In this document: in pieces, positions 208-59,148 of the stretch
Numbering within the stretch: the first letter of the stretch is position 1
Layout of the letters: every line of letters begins with the position of its first letter
Source: Patescibacteria group bacterium
GTDB lineage: Bacteria > Patescibacteriota > Patescibacteriia > Patescibacteriales > UBA12465
Length of the DNA: 64,000 nt
Assembly (NCBI GenBank): GCA_038323715.1
Contig: JBBQHF010000002.1
Span: forward strand, 15,102-79,101
Direction: 5' to 3'
Notes under the pieces: model-generated
Database searches by the model: none
What the model was told of the DNA's origin: nothing
The model's input: the letters and a program-made list of their open reading frames with translations, nothing else
Made by a program: the position numbers and the translations under genes

Positions 208-2931
208 TTAAAGTTCTTCCGCCTTCTCAACCGAAATCTCCGCCTTACTATTAATTATAACTTGGTCTCTCCGTTTTAATTCGCCGCCCAATATTTTATT
301 AGCAATCGTATCTTCAACCCTATCTTGCAATAAACGGCGCAAAGGACGAGCACCAAATTTAGGGTCATAACCAGCCTTTGCTAAAATCATTACCCCGTCT
401 TTATCAGCTTTTAAGCCAATCCCTTTATCCGCTAAATTCTTTTTTATTTTTTTAAGCATCAACGTGGCAATCGTAAATATATTTGCTTCGTCTAAAGGCC
501 TAAAAACAATAATACCATCAAAACGATTAATGAGCTCAGGGCGCATATGTTCTCTTAGCTGATTGTCAATTAATTCTTGTTTAATAATATTTAAACTGGC
601 CTTGGCTTTTATTTGATCTTGAATAAAAATAGCCCCAATATTAGAAGTGGCAATAATAATTGATTCGGCAAAGCTTATTGTTCTCCCCTGCCCATCCGTT
701 AAACGGCCATCATCTAAGAGTTGTAAAAACAAATTCAAAATATCTGGATTAGCCTTCTCTATTTCATCAAGCAGAATTAAAGAGAAGGGTTTTTTTCTAA
801 CTGCCTCAGTTAAATATCCCAAAGTGCCATCAACATCGCCAATCATTTTCCTCACACTATCCTGATTCTGATATTCACTCATATCAAGACGTATCAAATA
901 ATCTTCACTACCAAAATAAATTTGAGAAACGGCTTTTGCGAGTTCCGTTTTACCAACACCGGTTGGGCCCAGGAATAATAAACTAGCAATTGGACGACGA
1001 CTATCCTTCATGGCAGCGCGAGCGCGACGTAAACTAGCTGCGACCGCCTTTACGGCTTCATCTTGCCCAACCAATCTCTCATGAATTTCTACTTCTAAAT
1101 TCAAAAGTTTTTTACCTTCATCCGCCCCGATTTTATCAGAAGGGATGCCGGTTAGTTCAGCAATCGCCGACGCCACATCATCCCTTGAACAAAAAGGTTT
1201 ATCGGGATTATTTTTACTAGCAGCAACGGCAATCATTACCGCCTTTTCTAATAAATTAATTGCCTTAAGCGGTAAAAATTTATCATGTAAATATCGTGAA
1301 GCAAGCTTAACCGCTTGTTCCACTGCGCTATAAACTATATAAATATCATATTTTGCTTCTAAAATCCCCACCCGACTTTCAAGAATTTGAATAGCCTCAT
1401 TAACGTCAGGCTCCTTCACACCGATAGTAGTCATGGCTTCACCCAAAGATTTATTTTCAATATAATGAGAATAATTATCAGTAGTTGCGGCCGCAATACA
1501 AAAAATATGTTTACGGCTCAAGGCTTCGGCCAGGACTTCGGACAAATCTAAACTCTCCTTACTGCCCGCACTAATACCAATTAAATTCTCAATGTTATCA
1601 ATGTATAAAATAATATTTCCGGAACGATTAGCCTCGCTTATACAATTCATTAATCTCTCTTCAGCTGTGGCCGGGTCAGCGCCACTCACTAATTTAGAAA
1701 CTTCCAGCTCAACTAAACGTTTATCTTTCAAAAAAAGCGGCACATTTTCCTCAACCATCATTTGCGCCAAGCCTCCAATAATTGTGCTTTTACCCACGCC
1801 TGTTTGACCAACCAACAAAACACCATTATGACCGCCGATGAAAGCTTCGAAAATTGCGTTGATTTCTTTATTCCTCCCAACACATAAATCAAGCTGTCCG
1901 TATTTAGCTTTTAGGGTTAAGTCACGAGCAAAATGATCTAAAACGGGAGTAGCAATCGCTGTATATGACCTATTCATGCCCGAACCAGGTTTAAATAAGG
2001 CTGACTTTCTATATTCATGATATTTGTCCACCATTAGCTTATTAACCCGAAACCACTCGACGGCATTGATAATTTTGTCTTCATCAACTTCTAGTTCATA
2101 CATTATTTCCGCCAATTCTTCATCACGGCTATAACAAAATAAAATTATATTTAAAATATCAATGCTCTTTTGTCTACGATTAAAAGCGTCAACAAAGGAA
2201 GAAATAAAAGCTTCTTGTAGTTTAGCGGCAATGGCCCCACCGACCTCCACGGTCTCATCTTTTCCCGACTTACTTTTAGCATTAGCCAATTTGATAATTT
2301 GGCGGTCAATCATGTCCACCATCTTTTTAGCATCAACGTTTAATCTAATAAATAGACTTTGAACTTCTGGTGATTTTAAAGAAGCGCGAAAAAAATGAAT
2401 TATATCCGTTTGTTTTTGGCGTAATTTGCTAGACAGCAAGAAAGCATCTTCAATTATTCTCAAAGTTTCCTCGGATAAAGCGCGAGCAGTATTATATCTG
2501 CGGCTAGAATCATTTTTATATTTTTTATCGTCTTTAAAAAGATTATAATTTATTTTTTTAGTCGCTGCCACAGTAGCTCTATTTTTATAAACTAAAAACA
2601 AATCAAACCAGAGAGAAAGTAAAAACCCTGAAATTAAAATATCAGGCTTAGCCCAAAAGACAAACAAGTCAAGGGGATTTACCTGCAAGTTATCCCGGTG
2701 TAAAAATATCCAAATTGCAAAAGCGGCCCACCCAGAAAATATTGCCAGCCACAGAAAAAATCCTAACAGCTTGTTAATTTGGCGTTTAGTCTTATCAATA
2801 GCAATCAAAGATTTTTTAATCGTTTTGTCCCAATATAAAAATCTGCCCAGGAACCAAATACCTTGACCTTGACCACCGCTATCTTTTACAAATTCAGTTA
2901 TTTCATTTCGGTTTTTATCCATACTAACCAT
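208..2931 (-). CDS. Membrane-anchored two-ring Clp/Hsp100-family AAA+ ATPase (ClpA/ClpC-like layout, no M-domain, degenerate D1)
   Basis: Two N-terminal hydrophobic helices (LGFFLWLAIFSGWAAFAIWIFL and ILISGFLLSLWFDLFLVY). D1 has Walker A GQTGVGKS. D2 has Walker [13 protein letters not shown], Walker [23 protein letters not shown] and a GARPLRR sensor. The start is probably ATG at 2931, which overlaps the upstream stop (ATGGTTAG). Confidence 0.8.
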   Translation of the reverse strand: MVSMDKNRNEITEFVKDSGGQGQGIWFLGRFLYWDKTIKKSLIAIDKTKRQINKLLGFFLWLAIFSGWAAFAIWIFLHRDNLQVNPLDLFVFWAKPDILISGFLLSLWFDLFLVYKNRATVAATKKINYNLFKDDKKYKNDSSRRYNTARALSEETLRIIEDAFLLSSKLRQKQTDIIHFFRASLKSPEVQSLFIRLNVDAKKMVDMIDRQIIKLANAKSKSGKDETVEVGGAIAAKLQEAFISSFVDAFNRRQKSIDILNIILFCYSRDEELAEIMYELEVDEDKIINAVEWFRVNKLMVDKYHEYRKSALFKPGSGMNRSYTAIATPVLDHFARDLTLKAKYGQLDLCVGRNKEINAIFEAFIGGHNGVLLVGQTGVGKSTIIGGLAQMMVEENVPLFLKDKRLVELEVSKLVSGADPATAEERLMNCISEANRSGNIILYIDNIENLIGISAGSKESLDLSEVLAEALSRKHIFCIAAATTDNYSHYIENKSLGEAMTTIGVKEPDVNEAIQILESRVGILEAKYDIYIVYSAVEQAVKLASRYLHDKFLPLKAINLLEKAVMIAVAASKNNPDKPFCSRDDVASAIAELTGIPSDKIGADEGKKLLNLEVEIHERLVGQDEAVKAVAASLRRARAAMKDSRRPIASLLFLGPTGVGKTELAKAVSQIYFGSEDYLIRLDMSEYQNQDSVRKMIGDVDGTLGYLTEAVRKKPFSLILLDEIEKANPDILNLFLQLLDDGRLTDGQGRTISFAESIIIATSNIGAIFIQDQIKAKASLNIIKQELIDNQLREHMRPELINRFDGIIVFRPLDEANIFTIATLMLKKIKKNLADKGIGLKADKDGVMILAKAGYDPKFGARPLRRLLQDRVEDTIANKILGGELKRRDQVIINSKAEISVEKAEEL

Positions 2932-3292
2932 TAATTTGAAAAAATAAAGCAATTAATAAAAACAGGGGGAAGGTCAACCACAACAAAGCAAGGGTGATTA
3001 AAATTAATAACCAAATAACTAACATCGCTCCTCGCGCTATAATTTGAATAAAACGAATGAAAAAGCTAATCACCCTACCAGCAATATCATACTGGCCATA
3101 CATCGGAACAAAAATATTCTTAAGCCAAATACTAAAACCTAAGGATTTCGCTTGGTTACGCAAAAAGTTGAGCTCTTTTTTCAAGGTCTCAATAAATCCG
3201 ACGCTATACCACCAAAGTGGAAAATAAAGAATCTCGCCTATGGTTTGAAAGAATATCTTTCCCCCATAAGTTAAGAAGTTATGCCTCAACAT
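2924..3292 (-). CDS. Small polytopic membrane protein, no recognisable family, translationally coupled to the downstream membrane Clp ATPase
   Basis: The 122-aa ORF has hydrophobic stretches (AMLVIWLLILITLALLWLTFPLFLLIALFF). Its TAG stop overlaps the ATG of the next gene. Confidence 0.55.
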   Translation of the reverse strand: MLRHNFLTYGGKIFFQTIGEILYFPLWWYSVGFIETLKKELNFLRNQAKSLGFSIWLKNIFVPMYGQYDIAGRVISFFIRFIQIIARGAMLVIWLLILITLALLWLTFPLFLLIALFFQING

Positions 3293-3404
3293 ACATGATT
3301 TTATTAATTTTATTTTAACATAAAAACAAAATAATCACAATTAATTTTTAATTTAATTTAAGTCATAAACTGACCAAAAGCGAACCTTTATGATTAATCT
3401 AGAA

Positions 3405-3433
3405 TTGACAACCGACCAGCCTTATACTATCAT
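3405..3433 (+). promoter_or_regulatory. Sigma-70-type promoter for clpB
   Basis: TTGACA (3405-3410), a 17-nt spacer, then TATCAT (3428-3433), immediately upstream of the CIRCE operator. Confidence 0.55.
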
Positions 3434-3437
3434 AGAA

Positions 3438-3464
3438 TTAGCACTCTAATAATATGACTGCTAA
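3438..3464. promoter_or_regulatory. CIRCE (HrcA operator) inverted repeat upstream of clpB
   Basis: TTAGCACTC-N9-GACTGCTAA, one mismatch from the consensus TTAGCACTC-N9-GAGTGCTAA. It lies between the -10 box and the clpB ATG. Confidence 0.8.
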
Positions 3465-3491: not shown

Positions 3492-6131
3492 ATGTTTAAT
3501 AAATTTACCGATAAATCCCAAGAAGTAATCATTAATTCTCAAGTAATCGCCTCAAATTATGGCCAACATAATATTGAGGCTCTTCATATATTTTTAGCTC
3601 TGCTTGAACAAAATGAAGGCTTAGTAAAACCAATTTTAGAAAAATTAAAAATTGATCCAGAAGTGATGGAAGAGGTTGTAATCAAAGAACTTAAACATTT
3701 ACCTGGAACTAAAATAACCCCTCACGCCGGGCCAGTTCAAGCTGTTTCGGGAACTGCTGAAACGGCCGCTATTTTAGAAAGAGCCCAAAAAGAGGCCGAC
3801 GGCATGAATGATGAATTTATTTCAACTGAACATATTTTGCTCGCTCTAATAGGAATCAATTCTCCTGCACAAAAAATACTATTAGATTTCAAAGTTGAAT
3901 ATCAAACAGTCAAAGGTATTCTAAAAAATTTACGTGGTAATCAAACAATAAGTGACCCCTTCCCTGAAAATAAATTTCAAGTCCTAGAAAAATATACAAC
4001 CAACCTAACTGAACTGGCGAGACAAGAAAAATTAGATCCTGTTATTGGTCGCGATATGGAAATAAGAAGAATCATGCAGGTACTTCTTCGTCGTACAAAA
4101 AATAATCCAGTTTTAATTGGTGAGGCTGGAACCGGAAAAACGGCTGTTGTTGAAGGACTAGCGCAAAGGATAGTGTCAGGGGATGTTCCGGAGAACCTTA
4201 AGAATAAAGAAATTATTTCTTTAGATTTAGGCTCAATTGTGGCTGGCGCTAAGTTTAGGGGTGAATTTGAAGATCGTTTAAAAGCTATTTTAAAAGAAGT
4301 TAAATCGCAGAATGGTCGTTTAATTCTTTTCATTGACGAACTACACACCCTTATCGGCGCCGGCGCATCGGAAGGGTCAATGGATGCTTCTAATATGTTA
4401 AAACCGGCTCTTGCTCGTGGCGAACTCCGGACTATTGGCGCGACCACAACCAAAGAATATCAAAAATATATTGAAAAAGACGCCGCACTAGAAAGAAGAT
4501 TCCAACCAATTTATGTTTCCGAGCCAAGCGTAGAAGATACTATTAGCATGTTGCGCGGATTAAAAGAAAAATATGAAGTCCATCACGGCGTTAGAATTAC
4601 TGACAACGCTTTAATCGCGGCCGCTAAACTTTCTAATCGTTATATTAGTGATCGTTTTTTGCCAGACAAAGCAGTAGATCTTATAGACGAAGCCACCTCC
4701 TCATTACGGATGGAAATTGATTCTATGCCCGACGAGCTAGACCAGTTAAAAAGAAAAATAATTCAGCTAGAACTGAACAAAGCGGGCCTAATGACTACTG
4801 ATAAAAAATCTTCCAAAATCAGAGCCATTAATCAAGAATTGGCTAAAATAAAAGAGAGCTCAACCCAGCTTGAGCTTCACTGGAATAACGAAAAAAATAT
4901 TATTTCTCAAATAAGAATTTCTAAAAAAGAAATAGAAGATTTAAAAATAAAAGCAGAAATTTCCCAAAGACAAGGAGCTGATTTAACAGAGGTGGCTAAA
5001 ATAAAGTACGGTCTTATCCCAGAACTAGAAAATAAAATTAACAAATCACAAGAGGAATTATTAAAAATACAAAAAAGAGGCCAAAGAATATTAAAGGAAG
5101 AGGTTGACGAAGAAGATATCGCTAAAGTAGTGGCTCGCTGGACAGGGATACCAGTAAACAGAATGTTGCAGGATGAAATCAAAAAATTAAGTGATGCCGA
5201 AAAAGACCTTAACCAAGAAGTTGTCGGGCAAGAAGATGCTATTAAAGCTGTAGCTAATGCTTTAAGAAGGTCGCGCGCTGGGATTAATGAAGAAAAAAGA
5301 CCAATCGGTTCATTCTTATTTGTTGGTCCAACCGGAGTCGGAAAAACCGAGCTCGCTAAAACTCTGGCCAAATTCATGTTTGATGATGAACGCTCTTTGA
5401 TTAGGTTAGATATGAGCGAATTTATGGAAAAGCATTCCGTTGCCAAACTTATTGGCTCTCCTCCAGGATATATCGGGCACGATGATGGGGGGCAGTTAAC
5501 CGATAAAGTTCGCCGACATCCTTATAGCGTGGTCTTATTTGATGAAATAGAAAAAGCCCATCCCGACATGTTTAATGTTTTACTGCAAATACTTGATGAT
5601 GGACGTTTAACCGACTCAAAAGGAAGAGGTATAAATTTCAAGAATACTATTGTTATTATGACTTCCAACCTTGGTAACGAAGTTATAAAACATTATTCTA
5701 TTGGCTTTAGTGATGAAAGCGACAAAAAACAAGCGACCAAGATGCGCACCGAAGAAATGAAAGAAAAAATTGATAAAATTTTAAAAGAACATTTCAAGCT
5801 TGAGTTCTTAAATAGAATAGATGAGGTGGTTCTCTTTCATAGCTTATCCCCTGAAGCTTTAGAAAAAATAGTAGATTTAGAATTACAAAAAGTAGAAAAA
5901 AGATTAGCCGGAAAAAATATCGACTTGAAGGTTGGTGTTAAAGTCAAAAAAATGTTAGCCGAAAAAGGCTATGACATCACTTATGGGGCACGCCCACTAA
6001 AGAGAATTATTCAAAATCTAATTCTAGATGAGTTAGCTCTAGAAATAATTGAAGGAAAAATAAAAGAGGGTGGTAAGGTAAAGATCGACCTAGAGGAAAA
6101 AAATAAAATAGCGATTAAAATAATAAAATAA
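3492..6131 (+). CDS. clpB: Chaperone/disaggregase ClpB (long M-domain) with an extra IGF-containing loop in D2
   Basis: Clp_N repeats; D1 GEAGTGKT / [10 protein letters not shown]; a ~135-aa coiled-coil M-domain; D2 [12 protein letters not shown] / [10 protein letters not shown]; [16 protein letters not shown]; GARPLKR. Confidence 0.9.
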
Positions 6132-6231: not shown

Positions 6232-7731
6232 ATGAAAAAAATGAAAAATCAACAAACAGTAGCTATATCTCTAATATTAGCCATCCTAATTACATTTTTT
6301 AGTTTTAGTGTCAACTCCGTCCATGCTCAAATAGCAATAGACCCAAATTTTAATCCGCACAACATAATATCTGATGCGGATCTGATGGATGCTAGCGCGA
6401 TGAGTTTAGCTGAAATCCAAAACTTTTTACAAAGTAAGAACAGCTATTTAGCAAATTATATCGCCCCCAATAATACCGGTATTGCAAAAACGGCCGCCGA
6501 AATCATATATGATGCCACAAATAATAATTTTAATTGTGACGGCGCAATCTTAAGCGATACTCCAACAGATGCGGAAAAAAGATTAAAATGCCAAACAATT
6601 AAAACTGTAAATCCTAAATTTATTTTAGTCCTTTTACAAAAAGAGGCTAGTTTAATAGAAGACACGTCGCCAGCACAGGCTCGTCTTGATTGGGCGGCAG
6701 GATACGGTTGCCCAGATAATTGGGCCTGTAATCCTTATTACAAAGGTTTTGGAAAACAAGTAAATAGTGCCGCCTTACAATTTTTAGCATACATGAATGA
6801 ACAAGAAAAATATAAGTACCAAGCCGGTAAAACATATGTTTTCACAAACCCCTATGGCACAATTTCTAATGAACCGATGTCAGTAACCCCACAAAACAAA
6901 GCAACGGCCGCTTTATATAACTACACCCCTCATGTTTTTAATGGTAATTATAATGTTTATAAACTATTTAACCGTTATTTTCCAAATACTCCATTCTCCG
7001 CTATTTATCCAGACGGTTCACTAGTTAAATCGGACGGCGGCTCAGGAATCTGGCTGATAGAAAATGGTAAAAAAAGGCCTTTCTTAAATTATTCATCCTT
7101 CATTTCACGTTTCAATCCTAATCAAATATTAATAGCCTCAAAAACTATAATTGACGGATATCCAAATGGAGAGAATATTAAATTTCCGGATTATTCTCTA
7201 GTACAAACTCCAGATAAAAAAATATATTTGTTAGTCGGAAACGAGAAAAGACAATTTGACAGTTTAAGTGCCTTTAAATCTATTGGGTTTAATGTTGAAG
7301 AAATTGAACTAGCCACAGAAACAGAGCTAGCAAGTTATGCAATTGGAAAAACAATTACTGCTACCTCCAGTTATGTAACTGGCGCCTTGCTACAAGACCA
7401 AACTACTGGCGGAGTATTCTATGTTGAAAATAATACCAAAGCTCCTTTGCTAGATAGAATTTTACTAACAACTAAATTTAAAGGTAAAAAAATAATTAAG
7501 GTTTCACCAACTATACTCAATTCCTATCAAAAAATTGCCCCCGTATTATTTGGCGATGGCATATTATTGAAAACAGACTCTTTCCCAACTGTATATCTAG
7601 TATCAAATGGCAAAAAAAGACCATTTGCCAATGAAAATATTTTCAAATCTTTAGGTTATAATTCTACTAACGTAATAAGTGTATCTTCACAGTTTTTAGC
7701 TAATTACCCTCAAGGTGAAATAATTCAATAA
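6232..7731 (+). CDS. Secreted protein: N-terminal Cys-containing domain plus four C-terminal ~58-aa repeats, family unknown
   Basis: Signal peptide (MKKMKNQQTVAISLILAILITFFSFSVNSVHA). The C-terminal repeats each carry a (V/I)(Y/W)L(I/V)xNGKKRPF-type core. Confidence 0.6.
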   Translation: MKKMKNQQTVAISLILAILITFFSFSVNSVHAQIAIDPNFNPHNIISDADLMDASAMSLAEIQNFLQSKNSYLANYIAPNNTGIAKTAAEIIYDATNNNFNCDGAILSDTPTDAEKRLKCQTIKTVNPKFILVLLQKEASLIEDTSPAQARLDWAAGYGCPDNWACNPYYKGFGKQVNSAALQFLAYMNEQEKYKYQAGKTYVFTNPYGTISNEPMSVTPQNKATAALYNYTPHVFNGNYNVYKLFNRYFPNTPFSAIYPDGSLVKSDGGSGIWLIENGKKRPFLNYSSFISRFNPNQILIASKTIIDGYPNGENIKFPDYSLVQTPDKKIYLLVGNEKRQFDSLSAFKSIGFNVEEIELATETELASYAIGKTITATSSYVTGALLQDQTTGGVFYVENNTKAPLLDRILLTTKFKGKKIIKVSPTILNSYQKIAPVLFGDGILLKTDSFPTVYLVSNGKKRPFANENIFKSLGYNSTNVISVSSQFLANYPQGEIIQ

Positions 7732-14580: not shown

Positions 14581-16269
14581 TTATCGCATCAAATCGGGAG
14601 CGGGGGCAATTGCCGGAACGGATTCCATCATTCCTTGAGAGCCGCCAACTGAACCAGAAACGGCACCACCCGCCTGGATAGTTTTATACATAATTCCTGG
14701 CTGGTTACCAAGTTCATTCATCATTTCTTTAACCAAGGGGACAACAACGTATTTCTGGCCGTAATAATTAACGCCTTCAGGAATCTTAACAATTGGGAAT
14801 ATTAAAGCTGGAACTAATAATTCTTCATTACGATTGTCAACATATCTATATATCTGAGTATAAGATATTTCCGGGGTTCCTAATTCTATAGTTTGAGTAT
14901 TTTCTGGCGACTGATAATAATAATTTCCATTCCAGCCACCATTTTCCGCTAATTTAATAAGTTTATCACTAGAAGTTTCTAAATCATATTTAGACGACTC
15001 ATAACGATAAGGGACTAAACCGCTTAAACCAGAGGCAACTTTTTTATTTAGATTAATGGAAACTCGTAAACCAGCATAATTGCCGCTTTGATCTCTGACC
15101 GCCTTGCCATCAACCAACAAAGGATAAATAACAGTGGCATATTCAGGAATATAAAAATTAGCCTGATCGGTTGTCCTAGTATAATCATCACGCCAATAAT
15201 TGTCTACTAAGGCGGCGCCATAATGTTCAAGATTAACCGTATGAACTGCTAAAAATTTATCAGCTAAGGAAATTAAATCAGAATCTGCCGGGACATCACC
15301 GATTTTTATTCTATATCTATCCCAACAAGCCGAATCCCCTCCGCAAGCATCTCTTTCTGGGGTGGTCCATTTTTCCCAATTTTCATTAATATTAATAGTT
15401 CCTTCATTGAAATCAAAATAAATCATTAAACCAAGATTCTTATCCTCTGTTAAAGTTATATTTGAAGCTTTTAAGTCACTAAAAGCGGATAAACTAAAAC
15501 CATCGAAATCAAAACCTCCTATTAACCCAGCCATATTTTTAGCAATGGTCGGACTACCTTTAATACGACGATATACTTGCCCGCTTTCATCAGTGAGGTT
15601 AAGCGTATCGCCTTTATAAACATATTGAAACCCATAAAAAGGTGGCATTATTTTCATATCAGGAGCGATGGCGGAGACCGCAATGCCTGAATTCGCCTGA
15701 GCAGTGTCCATTGTTGCAAGAGAAACGCGAGACATCTCTGCTCCAGCAAAAGTCCCTCCTCCTCCGCTCAAAGCCATGGCCGACGTTTTTTCGGAAGGGC
15801 TATTAACAGCAGTTCCTAAACTGGCTAAATCGCCGAAGGCTCCAGCCGATAAGACCCTGACCGCCTCCTGATTTTCATCACCAGCACCCGCCACTTTATT
15901 ATTTATTTCTTGAGCGTCTTTTTGTGGGTTAATCAGATGTGATATTTGGGGTTTCACAAAGAAAACCACAGCGACACTAATTACCGCCAAAGATCCCAGC
16001 GCTAAATAAAACTTTTTATTCATATTGTTAGAGTTAAATATACTATTTAAATTTTTAGATTCTTTTGATTCTATTTCCGTTTCCGTCTCAGGAGAAATTT
16101 GCATAAATTCCGCTTTTAATCTCGTAGCAAAAGCAGCGTCAAATTTTGTATCCGGTTTTGCATTCTGCATACGACTTACCAGAACTAAAAGTTCTCTTTC
16201 ATATAGTTTCAAATCCGGTTCAAGGGCATATAATTCTTGAAGAATTTTTTTTAGTTCAGCTTCTTGCAT
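14581..16269 (-). CDS. Putative anti-sigma factor: single-pass membrane protein with a large extracytoplasmic domain
   Basis: Overlaps the stop of the upstream ECF sigma gene by 19 nt. Cytoplasmic N-terminus, one TM helix (FYLALGSLAVISVAVVFFV), and ~450 aa outside. No zinc-finger anti-sigma motif seen. Confidence 0.45.
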   Translation of the reverse strand: MQEAELKKILQELYALEPDLKLYERELLVLVSRMQNAKPDTKFDAAFATRLKAEFMQISPETETEIESKESKNLNSIFNSNNMNKKFYLALGSLAVISVAVVFFVKPQISHLINPQKDAQEINNKVAGAGDENQEAVRVLSAGAFGDLASLGTAVNSPSEKTSAMALSGGGGTFAGAEMSRVSLATMDTAQANSGIAVSAIAPDMKIMPPFYGFQYVYKGDTLNLTDESGQVYRRIKGSPTIAKNMAGLIGGFDFDGFSLSAFSDLKASNITLTEDKNLGLMIYFDFNEGTININENWEKWTTPERDACGGDSACWDRYRIKIGDVPADSDLISLADKFLAVHTVNLEHYGAALVDNYWRDDYTRTTDQANFYIPEYATVIYPLLVDGKAVRDQSGNYAGLRVSINLNKKVASGLSGLVPYRYESSKYDLETSSDKLIKLAENGGWNGNYYYQSPENTQTIELGTPEISYTQIYRYVDNRNEELLVPALIFPIVKIPEGVNYYGQKYVVVPLVKEMMNELGNQPGIMYKTIQAGGAVSGSVGGSQGMMESVPAIAPAPDLMR

Positions 16270-54962: not shown

Positions 54963-56885
54963 TTATTTATTTTCTTCTACTTCGCCTTCTACAACATCAT
55001 CTTTTTTCTCTTCAGTTTCACCATTAGTAGACGGCTCGGAATCTGTTTTAGCACCACTTGCGTCGGCATTAGCAGCGTCAGCTCCAGGTTGTTGATACAT
55101 AGCGGCTCCTATTTTTTGAGCAACGGTATTTAATTCTTCCAGCTTGGTTTTCATTTCCTCAATATTACCACCGTCCTTAGCCTTCTTCAAAGCCTCAACT
55201 TTTTCTTCTAATTCTTTTTTATCTTCTGGCTTCATTTTCTCGCCAGATTCCTTGAGCATTTTTTCAGTCGTAAAAATCACTACGTCAGCTTGATTTTTTA
55301 TTTCAGCTTCTTCCTTTTTCTTTTTATCATCGTCAGCATGTAGCTCCGCTTCTTTTTTCATTTTTTCAATTTCTTCTTTTGATAATCCAGAAGAGGCCGT
55401 AATCGTAATATTTTGTTGTTTATTTGTCGCCTTATCCGTTGCAGACACATTCAAAATTCCATTAGCGTCCAAATCAAATTTTACTTCAACCTGAGGAATG
55501 CCCCGAGGAGCAGAAGGAATACCATCAAGAATAAAACGTCCTAAAGTTTTATTATCAGCGGCCATCGGTCTTTCTCCTTGAACAATATGAATCTCGACAC
55601 TAGTTTGACCATCGGCAGCCGTTGAAAAAACTTGGGCTTTAGAAGTTGGGATAGTTGTATTTCTTTCAATCAAAGGAGTAGCGACGCTTCCCATGGTTTC
55701 AATTCCTAGAGTTAAAGGGGTCACATCTAATAATAAGACATCTTTGACATCTCCTTGTAAAACACCCGCTTGAACGGCGGCCCCCATGGCTACCACTTCG
55801 TCTGGGTTAACACTTAAATTCGGTTCTTTGCCAAAAAATTCTTTTACTTTTTGTAATACGAGCGGCATACGAGTCATACCCCCAACCATCAGTATTTCAT
55901 TAATATCGCCAATCTGAAAACCAGAGTCGTGGATTGCCTTGCGGCAAGGTTCAATTGTTTTATCAATTAAATCTGCGACTAATGATTCTAATTTAGAACG
56001 AGAAATTTTCATAACTAAATGTTTTGGACCATTAGCGTCAGTAGTTATAAAGGGTTGGTTAATTTCTGTTTCTTGAGCAGTTGATAATTCTATTTTTGCT
56101 TTTTCAGCCGCCTCCTTAATTCTTTGTAAAGCGAGCGCATCTTTTGATAAATCAATCCCTTGGTCGCGTTTAAATTCATCAATAATCCAAGCAATTATTC
56201 TTTGATCAAAGTCTTCTCCGCCAAGATGAGTATCACCATTAGTTGATTTTACCTCAACGGTATCAGCTGAAATATCTAAAACGGAAACATCAAATGTCCC
56301 TCCACCTAAATCATATACGACAATTTTTTGTCCATTCTTTTTATCAAATCCATAAGCTAAAGCGGCGGCTGTCGGCTCATTAATAATTCTTTTAACATCA
56401 AGCCCAGCAATTTGTCCGGCATCCTTAGTGGCTTGGCGTTGCGAATCATTAAAATAAGCTGGGACAGTAATAATTGCCTCCGTTATTTTTTCTCCCAATT
56501 TTGATTCAGCGTCAGCTTTTAATTTAGATAATATCATCGCCGAAATTTCTTGAGGAGTATAATCTTTATCTCCCATTTTTACTTTCACGCCTTCGCCAGC
56601 TTGAACAATTTTATATGGCGCATTTTTTAAATCTTTTTGAACCTCGTCTTCATTAAAATGACGACCAATTAAACGCTTAACTGCGTAAACCGTGTTCTCA
56701 GGATTAATAACTGCCTGTCTTTTAGCGGCGGCGCCGACGATTCTTTCGTTATTTTTGGAAATAGCAACAACCGATGGGGTTGTTCTATTGCCTTCGATGT
56801 TTTCAATAATTTTTGGAACACCGCCCTCCATGATAGACATGGCCGAGTTAGTTGTTCCTAAATCAATTCCTAAAATTTTTCCCAT
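54963..56885 (-). CDS. dnaK: Molecular chaperone DnaK (Hsp70)
   Basis: [19 protein letters not shown], and [10 protein letters not shown], with a full-length SBD and an acidic tail. Confidence 0.96.
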
Positions 56886-57359: not shown

Positions 57360-58388
57360 TTATCCGACAACTACTTTTGCCGGCCTAATTACGCGTCCAT
57401 TTAATTTATACCCTGGCATAATTTCTTTTTGAACCATATCTCCGTCCCCATCCATAGCATCCATAGTTGCGTGATCAAATTTTTCGCCCGTAGTCTTTAT
57501 TTCTTCCACTCCCCTTGCCTCAAGCAAGTCTTTAAACTGTTTTAAAACATGGCGGACTCCAACAACCCAAGCATTATTTTCATCTTTCTCTTTTAAGCCC
57601 AGCAAAGATAGTTTAAGATGATCATAAACTGGGATAATATCTTGTAAAAAATCTTGCAAGGCATATTTAGCAAAATCCTGTTTGTCTTTAGACGTTTGTT
57701 TAACTAAATTTTGATAATCAGCTAAAGCTCTTTTATACTGGTTTTCGAAGGACTCATTATTATTCTTTTTTTCCAAATAATATCCTATAAGTGGAGTCAC
57801 CGAAGAAGATATCTTTAATTCACTCGTTTCTTTTGGGTTAACCCAAAGATATTCGGTCATTTCATTACTCTTAGTAATCTCGCCACCGGCCAGTTCTGCC
57901 AAATAACTTAAATAAATAAAATGCTTTTTTTTGAAAAAGAATTCGGGATTTATCCCCTCACTGAATCCAATCGCTTCAATATTTTTAAGTTGTAAATTGG
58001 TTTCTTCTAAGAACTCTCTCCTAAGAGCTTGTTCAGCTGATTCATCTAATTCTATATGCCCACCAGGAATGGTCCAAAAATCACCAAACTTTGGATTTTT
58101 TATTAAAAGAATTTCTCCTTTTTCATTATAGACTAAAGCCCCGACTACAGCTTCGGGATGTCTGTCAGAATTATCCTCGCCCAAAAATTCAAATCGTGAT
58201 TTCTTTTTACCATCTACTTCAGCATCACTTAAAAACATTTTTTTTGGTCTAACCCAAATTTTATTTTCATTTTTAATATCTTGATAAACAACTACTTCTT
58301 GTTGATTTTCAGTGTCGGTTCCAAGCCCTACAATCTTATATTCCCCGCCTTTATAATGGCGATAAACACCCTTTTTTATTTCTTCCAT
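57360..58388 (-). CDS. grpE: DUF1653 - NUDIX hydrolase - GrpE fusion protein (the only GrpE-like module in the operon)
   Basis: Aa 1-70: YRHYKGGEYKIVG...VVVYQ...WVRPKKMF (DUF1653-like). Aa ~77-205: Nudix fold with box GHIELDESAEQALRREFLEETNL. Aa ~212-342: GrpE core (ADYQNLVKQ, IIPVYDHLKLSL, GVRHVLKQF, GEKFDHATMDAM, PGYKLNGRVIRPAKVVV). Confidence 0.8.
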   Translation of the reverse strand: MEEIKKGVYRHYKGGEYKIVGLGTDTENQQEVVVYQDIKNENKIWVRPKKMFLSDAEVDGKKKSRFEFLGEDNSDRHPEAVVGALVYNEKGEILLIKNPKFGDFWTIPGGHIELDESAEQALRREFLEETNLQLKNIEAIGFSEGINPEFFFKKKHFIYLSYLAELAGGEITKSNEMTEYLWVNPKETSELKISSSVTPLIGYYLEKKNNNESFENQYKRALADYQNLVKQTSKDKQDFAKYALQDFLQDIIPVYDHLKLSLLGLKEKDENNAWVVGVRHVLKQFKDLLEARGVEEIKTTGEKFDHATMDAMDGDGDMVQKEIMPGYKLNGRVIRPAKVVVG

Positions 58389-58396
58389 AGTTTTAT

Positions 58397-59089
58397 TTAC
58401 TCAAATTTATTTTTAATAAACTCTATCAAAGCTAAGTTATGGTTATAATCCATGCGCATTGGACCCAGAATACCAAAAATGCTATGAGAATTATTATTTT
58501 TATATTTTACTAGCACAACACTCAAAAAATCACCGAATGGATTCTTAGACCCAATAAGAGCTTGCGGCCCTTCTTGCAATTCTTCAAAAATTTCATCAAT
58601 AATTTCTTCCATCCTGTCTATTATCCCGGAAACATCACAAACATTATTTACCTGTTTAAACTCTGGTTGAGAAAATAAATTGGAAAGTCCAGTATAATAT
58701 AAATCATTTTTATGAAAAGCCCAAAATACTGCGCCACCAGATAATTCAGAAATGGCTCGTGCCGTTTGTCTTAAAGCGCTATCTTCTTTACCAAATAAAT
58801 TATTTAACAACCTTTCGTCAGAATCTTTCAAAAATTTTTTTTTCTTTAAATCTTTAAAGTCTTCTAAAAAAAGTTCATAAGCGATTTCAGTCGGGACTCT
58901 CCCAGCCGAAGTGTGGGGTTGATGTATGAATCCCTCATTCTCCAGCTCCATCATTTCATTACGCACCGTAGCCGGGGAAATATCTAACTTATACTTCTCC
59001 ACCAACAAGCCAGAAGAAACCGGCTGAGCAGTTTTAACGTATTCTTTTATTATTGTTTCCAGTAAAAACTTTTTACGCTCTGACATCAT
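58397..59089 (-). CDS. hrcA: Heat-inducible transcription repressor HrcA (short form)
   Basis: N-terminal winged helix (IIKEYVKTAQPVSSGLLVEKYKLDISPATVRNEMMELENEGFIHQPHTSAGRVPT). The start is taken at MMSERKK because the longer ORF would run through the CIRCE operator. Confidence 0.85.
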   Translation of the reverse strand: MMSERKKFLLETIIKEYVKTAQPVSSGLLVEKYKLDISPATVRNEMMELENEGFIHQPHTSAGRVPTEIAYELFLEDFKDLKKKKFLKDSDERLLNNLFGKEDSALRQTARAISELSGGAVFWAFHKNDLYYTGLSNLFSQPEFKQVNNVCDVSGIIDRMEEIIDEIFEELQEGPQALIGSKNPFGDFLSVVLVKYKNNNSHSIFGILGPMRMDYNHNLALIEFIKNKFE

Positions 59090-59121
59090 ATATTTTAAAC
59101 CTGATATCATTATAAACAAAA

Positions 59122-59148
59122 TTAGCACTCAAGTCAATAGAGTGCTAA
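59122..59148. promoter_or_regulatory. Perfect CIRCE (HrcA operator) upstream of the hrcA-grpE-hsp20-dnaK-dnaJ operon
   Basis: TTAGCACTC-AAGTCAATA-GAGTGCTAA matches the consensus exactly. On the minus strand it is preceded by a TATAGT -10-like box 4 nt upstream. Confidence 0.9.

Follow-up and report, generated by a model that had tools for sequence, protein, structure and literature searches.

A candidate membrane-anchored Clp/Hsp100 machine and its small membrane partner in Patescibacteria

Clp/Hsp100 ATPases are textbook soluble threading machines and are defined by the tyrosines of their pore loops. The 64,000-nucleotide (nt) stretch analysed here (the window; positions 15,102 to 79,101 of contig JBBQHF010000002.1, assembly GCA_038323715.1, from a Patescibacteria group bacterium) encodes on its reverse strand a Clp/Hsp100 paralog (208..2931, hereafter the ATPase) and, directly upstream of it, a membrane protein of 122 amino acids (aa; 2924..3292, hereafter the partner). 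The pairing of these two genes is strongly supported, and together they constitute a new Patescibacteria transmembrane (TM)-Hsp100 module. It is somewhat probable that their products are the two subunits of an Hsp100 machine that is anchored in the membrane and specific to Patescibacteria, and in which the second AAA+ module of the ATPase (D2) would drive remodelling together with the partner. Neither component is covered by a Pfam, NCBIfam or PADLOC model; the ATPase is a new Clp/Hsp100 variant and the partner belongs to a new family.

The clade that departs in this way from the Hsp100 pattern is large: it comprises at least 150 clusters at 50% identity, is present in at least 270 GTDB species and combines a perfect D2 motor, the disappearance of the paddles from both rings, a pseudo-ATPase in the first AAA+ module (D1), a membrane location and an obligate new partner. 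Such a clade would show, as a natural experiment, which tasks an Hsp100 ring can perform when it does not thread. Patescibacteria have a very small proteome, to which the clade would also add a lineage-specific, conserved membrane machine, and little is understood of their envelope biology and their dependence on hosts.

Domain architecture and closest relatives of the ATPase

The ATPase is a ClpC-like double-ring Hsp100 paralog, as seen from the open reading frame (ORF) list, Pfam and NCBIfam scans, alignments, an AlphaFold2 (AF2) model and a fold search. Two tandem AAA+ modules and a ClpB_D2-small domain place it in Clp/Hsp100 class I. Pfam recognises AAA_2 at aa 646-805, ClpB_D2-small at 813-892 and AAA_lid_9 at 510-578, together with a weak D1 AAA match, and a single continuous ClpA alignment spans aa 153-894 (residues are numbered from ATG 2931, which gives a form of 907 aa). 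Its domain order, Clp_N - D1 - D2 - D2-small, is that of ClpC, ClpA and ClpE. The closest solved relatives by sequence are the ClpC proteins of B. subtilis and S. aureus (phmmer 1e-130), and ClpC is also the top fold match (Foldseek 4e-58) of the AF2 model, which was computed with 66 family sequences and reached a predicted local distance difference test score (pLDDT) of 88.7 and a predicted TM-score (pTM) of 0.82. For ClpC protomers with a resolved D1-D2 body (~580 residues) the target-normalised TM-score is ~0.8. Nevertheless, the NCBIfam models for ClpB, ClpA, ClpK, ClpG and ClpV all score far under their cut-offs (for ClpB, TIGR03346, 543 vs 1232; for ClpA, TIGR02639, 467 vs 993).

Several elements that give other Hsp100 proteins their function are missing. 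Only ~15 residues connect D1 and D2, compared with ~70 in ClpC, so there is no room for an M-domain; alignment with ClpC and ClpB shows none, and the AF2 model contains no long helical insertion. At the position of the ClpC VGF the alignment has a gap, and the IGF/VGF loop is likewise missing in most of the family rows shown. A protease domain (Peptidase_M41, HEXXH) was not found in Pfam and NCBIfam scans of the ATPase, nor did tblastn detect clpP or clpX within the 64-kb window or the fetched loci. The ATPase is thus probably neither a ClpB-type disaggregase, as it has no M-domain, nor a ClpP partner, as it has no docking loop, nor an FtsH-type protease, as it has no protease domain. The original prediction, made from the DNA sequence before this analysis, had described a ClpA/ClpC-like two-ring layout without M-domain and IGF loop, and Pfam, the ClpC alignment and the fold match all agree with it.

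A degenerate D1, an intact D2 and altered pore loops

Motifs were aligned with ClpC and with the ClpB encoded next to the pair, and their coordinates were verified separately. D1 (1192..1899, reverse strand, as for all features of the pair) is catalytically degenerate according to these alignments and the family statistics given below. Its P-loop is kept (Walker A GQTGVGKS, 1786-1809). Its Walker B reads IILYIDNIENL and carries Asn at the site of the catalytic Glu (D-N codons 1594-1599). The D1 pore loop, VSGADP-ATAEERL (1651-1689), has no aromatic residue and a one-residue gap exactly where the Tyr is expected. At the Arg-finger site the sequence is SLGEAMTTI (1423-1449), compared with ALERRFQPI in ClpB, and both Arg are gone; this loss was not among the motifs listed earlier.

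D2 (502..1116), delimited by Pfam, the alignments and the family statistics, retains all catalytic motifs: Walker A GPTGVGKT (946-969), Walker B LILLDEIEKA (751-780), sensor-1 TSN (634-651) and the Arg finger NRFD (517-531). Sensor-2 GARPLRR (334-354) is intact as well and lies in the ClpB_D2-small domain (256..495; Pfam, coordinates verified). The D2 pore loop, IGDVDGTLGYLTE (805-843), is 5 aa shorter than that of ClpB and lacks the Tyr of GYVG, and the IGF loop is deleted in D2. A Tyr stands immediately before LTE, at the start of the helix that follows this loop. The earlier claims on these motifs, namely Asn for Glu in the D1 Walker B, a D1 pore loop without aromatic residue (GADP-ATAE), a GDVDGTLGY-type loop in place of GYVG and intact D2 Walker A and B, were all borne out: with gaps placed residue by residue, Walker B of D1 and both pore loops remain unconventional.

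Conservation across the family

The family became visible only when 1.84 billion cluster representatives were searched exhaustively with HMMER; a word-indexed search with the N-terminal 352 aa had returned 9 fragmentary matches. The best 150 matches of the HMMER search (clusters at 50% identity) were taken as the family set. Their representatives are 35-66% identical to the query and mostly ~850-960 aa long, with a few fragments or longer fusions, and nearly all align to it as one continuous stretch. All members with a named taxon are Patescibacteria, including Falkowbacteria and Kerfeldbacteria. They are currently annotated as 'ClpC', 'ClpA' or 'AAA family ATPase', automated labels that are misleading for these proteins.

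The D2 motor is almost invariant in this set: the Walker A Lys is present in 149 of 150 representatives, the Walker B Glu and the sensor-1 Asn in 148 each, and the Arg finger and the sensor-2 Arg in 147 each. In D1 the catalytic Glu is kept in 9 of 148 representatives, GK[ST] in 66 and an Arg at either finger position in 36, and the pore aromatic in none (0/148). A G[YFW]xG motif occurs in 4 of the 113 D2 loops, which vary over 13-19 aa and are rich in Gly, Ser, Asp and Glu. One or more N-terminal hydrophobic segments were found in 139 of 150 members, and the remaining 11 are mostly N-terminally truncated fragments. The structural traits first predicted for the window's protein alone (a membrane tether, a degenerate D1 and pore loops, an intact D2 and no M-domain or IGF) therefore hold family-wide. 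One member, P0193 (1191 aa, on a JGI/ENA contig of 77.6 kb), has an additional AAA_2 plus D2-small unit after D2, which makes it an Hsp100-like protein of three rings, with TM segments at its N-terminus.

This conservation bears on the idea that the ATPase is a decaying, functionless duplicate of ClpC or ClpB, or that it belongs to a mobile anti-phage system whose ATPase is ClpB-like, as DolB is in Dodola. The degenerate D1 could be taken as a sign of decay, and PADLOC partly matches the D2 domain (AAA_2 core, aa ~600-775) to DolB and PDC-M37B. Yet conservation of the D2 catalytic residues is ~100% in at least 150 clusters (50% identity), every locus has an intact ORF, and the pair occupies a fixed chromosomal position among housekeeping genes. 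The conservation data effectively refute this explanation, which is so improbable that it can practically be dismissed. A defence system of the Dodola or PDC-M37 type was also rejected in its own right: the PADLOC matches are confined to generic AAA_2, the partner has no match and the chromosomal position is conserved.

Membrane anchor, N-terminal domain and linker

Two hydrophobic helices precede the Clp part of the protein. TM helix 1 (TM1; aa 54-77, KLLGFFLWLAIFSGWAAFAIWIFL, 2701..2772) has a Kyte-Doolittle hydropathy of 2.07 and a Hessa insertion free energy (dG) of -1.8 and lies within an AF2 helix at aa 40-77. TM helix 2 (TM2; aa 97-116, DILISGFLLSLWFDLFLVYK, 2584..2643) has a hydropathy of 1.61 and a dG of +3.8 and coincides with an AF2 helix at aa 98-123; both AF2 helices have pLDDT values of 80-95. 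Two clear TM helices had been claimed at the outset, which is justified for TM1 and too strong for TM2, whose dG is marginal. ClpB has no comparable segments. TM2 follows a consensus, FWxSxxxDxxLxYR, with a conserved Asp inside the membrane segment. With 10 Lys/Arg before TM1, 11 after TM2 and 2 in the intervening loop, the charge pattern fits an N-in/C-in hairpin that would leave the ATPase in the cytoplasm.

The hairpin is followed by a divergent Clp_N double-repeat domain (aa 151-297, 2041..2481). It gives no direct Pfam match in the ATPase itself; homologs have PF02861 matches, and the family profile aligns with the ClpB N-domain profile by hhalign with a probability of 99.2% and an E-value of 3.4e-19. 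AF2 places helices across aa 154-311. Between Clp_N and D1 lies a family-specific linker, KPGSGMNRSYTAIATPV (aa 314-330, 1942..1992), with invariant P315, R321, T324 and T328 and a near-invariant consensus, KPxxxMNRxxTAxATPxLD, that is modelled as low-confidence coil. The Asp motif of TM2 and this apparently unstructured linker motif are both conserved features specific to the family.

About half of the full-length members open, before the TM hairpin, with a DnaJ-like zinc-ribbon motif, CxxCxGxG-x6-CxxCxGxG (for example at L086:5001-5100 and in P0133). The window's ATPase and its close relatives have lost the ribbon. All that is left of it in the window (2830-2931) is a Cys-less stretch, DSGGQGQGIWFLGRFLYW, for which AF2 predicts a beta-hairpin at aa 23-33. 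An N-terminal zinc-binding domain is also found in ClpE and ClpX, which the ribbon-bearing members resemble in this respect.

The partner and its pairing with the ATPase

The partner is a new, strongly conserved family. It has 353 cluster-level relatives of near-constant length; the 120 listed are 121-131 aa long, are all annotated as 'hypothetical' and belong to Patescibacteria wherever a taxon is named. An alignment of 23 sequences contains ~30 invariant positions, which lie in two motifs, YFPxWWYSxG and LGFxxWxKNIFVPMYGQxDxxGRxISFxxRxxQxxxRG. The partner has no match in Pfam or NCBIfam, none to PDB sequences by profile search, and no significant fold match in the PDB (best E 4.5). In its AF2 model (pLDDT 87) the conserved loop connects two long helices, which span aa 6-51 and 70-121. 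The C-terminal segment at aa 88-118 is the only confident TM segment (dG -5.2), and aa 10-33 form a marginal hydrophobic helix; this protein, first described as polytopic, is therefore not clearly so. Between these segments aa 34-87 hold 8 Lys/Arg, in line with the positive-inside rule for a cytoplasmic hairpin.

A scan of GTDB species genomes found a partner relative in 270 species, and the best 80 loci were fetched and made up most of the 86 loci in which pairing was tested. In 86 of 86 the partner gene is followed by a same-strand ATPase paralog that is 35-80% identical to that of the window. The reverse test started from eight distant ATPase members, none of which shares the window's upstream neighbourhood (among their neighbours are SecE-NusG-L11, TGT/GGDEF, RRF, YidC and ferredoxin genes). 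Directly upstream of each lies a small gene without Pfam match (245 nt upstream in L089), and all of these genes match the partner hidden Markov model (HMM; E 1e-38 to 6e-9).

Natural fusions add to this picture. In at least four independent 50%-identity clusters (P0278, P0268, P0242 and P0258, with members P0294 and P0295) a partner domain is joined to the N-terminus of the ATPase (HMM E 9e-13 to 1e-5, profile positions ~18-118). After this domain come another hydrophobic segment, a basic cluster and Clp_N; the domain takes the place that zinc ribbon and TM1 have in the two-gene form. As two hydrophobic passes separate the hairpin from the cytoplasmic ATPase, the partner hairpin with its KNIFVPMYGQxD tip is most simply placed in the cytoplasm too. 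A metagenome scan for a fusion gene of the P0278 type returned just an unrelated, canonical ClpS-ClpA locus (L094). The suggestion that the two genes form a pair, originally made from their overlap in one genome, has thus been substantiated by co-occurrence in both directions and by fusion.

Proposed mechanism and comparison with known systems

By homology the ATPase is presumably a hexamer. The two-helix hairpin at its N-terminus would hold it at the cytoplasmic membrane with the Clp_N/D1 face toward the membrane. D1 would serve as a non-hydrolysing structural ring, in which the retained Walker A (GxxGxGKS) is compatible with nucleotide binding, and D2 would be the sole motor. The partner, anchored by its C-terminal TM segment, would place its cytoplasmic helical hairpin and near-invariant KNIFVPMYGQxD tip beside the membrane-proximal face of the ATPase, in physical contact with it. 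ATP hydrolysis in D2 would then most likely remodel the partner itself, or a membrane or envelope client held by the partner. Canonical hand-over-hand threading is disfavoured by the combination of an intact D2 with a dead D1 and with pore loops that vary and have no aromatics. A remodeller rather than a threader is the likeliest reading, and the family-wide loss of pore-loop aromatics is consistent with it.

Some observations weigh against this interpretation. The hydrophobicity of TM2 is only marginal. Proteins of the fusion type keep DE in the D1 Walker B, so that inactivity of D1 is not universal. Finally, aliphatic or other residues could stand in for the aromatic paddles. With regard to the second point, the fusion-type proteins have already lost both pore-loop aromatics, which suggests that loss of the paddles is the universal trait of the family and that the catalytic decay of D1 is progressive within it; fusion-type members may be basal.

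The difference from ClpC, ClpA and ClpE lies in the TM hairpin and the obligate small membrane partner, in the absence of the IGF/VGF docking loop and of the half M-domain of ClpC, and in the loss of the D1 Walker B Glu, the Arg fingers and the pore-loop Tyr of both rings; with these proteins the ATPase shares the lack of a long M-domain of the ClpB type. ClpB and Hsp104 have AAA_2 and D2-small in common with the ATPase, and its D2 is 43% identical to that of the neighbouring ClpB. It differs from them in its degenerate D1 and pore loops and its membrane anchor as well as in lacking a coiled-coil M-domain, without which coupling to DnaK would be unexpected.

In FtsH (with HflK/C) and Msp1/ATAD1 an N-terminal TM anchor sets the entry face of the ring at the membrane, and FtsH works with small membrane partners. 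These proteins have a single ring of the classical AAA type and aromatic pore loops, and FtsH carries an M41 protease domain, which the ATPase lacks. The shared anchor with its entry face at the membrane raises the alternative of a membrane-anchored but otherwise conventional unfoldase or extractase like Msp1 or FtsH, which would extract membrane proteins from the bilayer, threading them from the D1 face through the pore by means of non-aromatic pore residues, and use the partner as a substrate adaptor. Such a protein would need the fully intact D2 motor that is observed, the pairing would suit an adaptor, and a hydrophobic residue (Tyr, Leu, Ile, Val or Phe) precedes LTE, just past the D2 loop, in most members. 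However, aromatics are missing from both pore loops across the family, the D1 loop has its one-residue deletion at the Tyr site, and the variable length and Gly/Asp/Ser-rich composition of the D2 loop point to relaxed constraint. Threading of this kind is therefore considered rather unlikely.

Further parallels are offered by Torsin and PEX1/PEX6. Torsin is a Clp-D2-related AAA+ protein that lacks pore-loop aromatics, is associated with membranes and needs a membrane-spanning cofactor (LAP1/LULL1), and PEX1/PEX6 is a double-ring AAA complex with an inactive D1 that is held at the membrane by a tail-anchored partner (PEX15/26). Unlike Torsin, the ATPase has an intact Arg finger in D2; unlike both systems, it has a TM hairpin of its own, and its partner is unrelated to theirs in sequence and fold. 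The likeness is one of analogy, and homology is not claimed. Searches of the full-text literature turned up neither a Clp/Hsp100 with a membrane anchor nor any description of this Patescibacteria family, and Clp is not mentioned in a paper on protein families of the CPR (candidate phyla radiation).

A downstream glycosyltransferase and the cell envelope

In 72 of ~84 related loci a gene for a WecA/TagO-like glycosyltransferase (Glycos_transf_4, GT4) stands 3' of the ATPase and in the same orientation, and it is also found 3' of the pair in the distant loci L086 and L090. Examples are L002:9056-10099, L086:7774-8844 and L088:4240-7935, and the gene is often fused to QueH. The enzyme was classed as WecA-like and not as MraY. 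In one protein, P0147 (GCA_964470025.1), ATPase and GT4 form a single ORF of 1231 aa. In the window itself the place that GT4 takes in related loci lies beyond the analysed DNA (past position 1).

These observations would fit a pair that is a dedicated regulator or assembly factor for the initiation of envelope glycopolymers, acting on the activity, oligomeric state or turnover of GT4. Yet no GT4 stands next to the pair in 5 of the 8 distant loci (L087, L089, L091, L092 and L093), the fusion was seen once, on one contig, and the gene is outside the window. Small related genomes can, moreover, inherit synteny without any functional link. The connection between ATPase and GT4 could be genuine within a sub-clade or could reflect no more than inherited synteny, and a dedicated role in glycopolymer initiation appears unlikely.

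A more far-reaching version of the membrane-anchored machine can also be imagined. Six ATPase TM hairpins and six partner TM segments (at least 18 helices) would form a membrane ring coaxial with the Hsp100 channel, and D2, acting without aromatic paddles, would gate or transport a non-canonical client, either across the membrane or out of it, or would control glycopolymer initiation by the adjacent WecA-like transferase. This arrangement is speculative and seems quite improbable; if true, it would be a Patescibacteria-specific envelope or host-interaction device without a described equivalent.

Gene organisation, start codon and regulation

The ATPase ORF (208..2952) gives 914 aa from TTG 2952 and 907 aa from ATG 2931. 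A further ATG at 2922 (MDKNRNE..., 904 aa) lies 1 nt past the partner stop codon, TAG 2924-2926. Among the 86 loci compared, the junction in relatives is mostly TAA-T-ATG-G.., and an in-frame ATPase ATG falls within -11..+15 nt of the partner stop in 72. As TAA-T-ATG is the commonest junction, ATG 2922 is likelier than the overlapping ATG 2931, and by this comparison of sequences the ATPase probably starts at ATG 2922. The start-codon overlap reported earlier, ATGGTTAG, is present in the DNA, whereas initiation of the ATPase within it is disfavoured by the junctions of relatives. The partner ORF is defined by its motifs YFPxWWYSxG and KNIFVPMYGQxDxxGRxISFxxRxxQ and by its C-terminal TM segment.

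A spacer of 199 nt separates the pair from the divergent clpB gene (3492..6131, forward strand, 879 aa). On the side of clpB it contains a strong promoter-like site, TTGACA-17-TATCAT, followed by a CIRCE element at 3438-3464 with 1 mismatch (together 3405..3464, forward strand, by motif match); the original description of a CIRCE-regulated, divergent clpB agrees with this arrangement. A candidate sigma-70-like promoter for the pair, TTGTGA-17-TAAAAT preceded by TG (3312..3340, reverse strand), is a weaker site identified by consensus match and lies ~100 nt from CIRCE. As CIRCE is located 3' of the promoter of clpB and precedes the promoter-like site of the pair by ~100 nt, the pair is best read as lying outside the HrcA regulon. 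It is found both with and without an adjoining clpB, and many relatives lack this neighbour. Control of the pair by CIRCE/HrcA was rejected on these grounds, the pair having a promoter-like site of its own and clpB often being located elsewhere.

A second, perfect CIRCE occurs at 59122-59148 in the same window, ahead of an operon of hrcA (58397-59128), grpE (57360-58388) and dnaK (54963-56885) on the reverse strand. The GrpE of this operon (342 aa) is fused at its N-terminus to DUF1653 and NUDIX domains. Next to clpB, at 6232-7731 on the forward strand, lies a gene whose 499-aa product has a signal-peptide-like N-terminus and matches no Pfam family; this gene adjoins clpB in related genomes as well (L002, L004).

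The neighbouring ClpB is itself unusual. It combines a full-length M-domain with an IGF loop of the ClpC/ClpA type at the ClpP-docking position (aa ~735-745), and its TIGR03346 score of 1192.6 is slightly under the ClpB cut-off of 1232.1. The IGF is kept in 57 of 58 orthologs from related loci, and this ClpB may, judging from its motifs, be a natural ClpP-docking hybrid of ClpB and ClpC.

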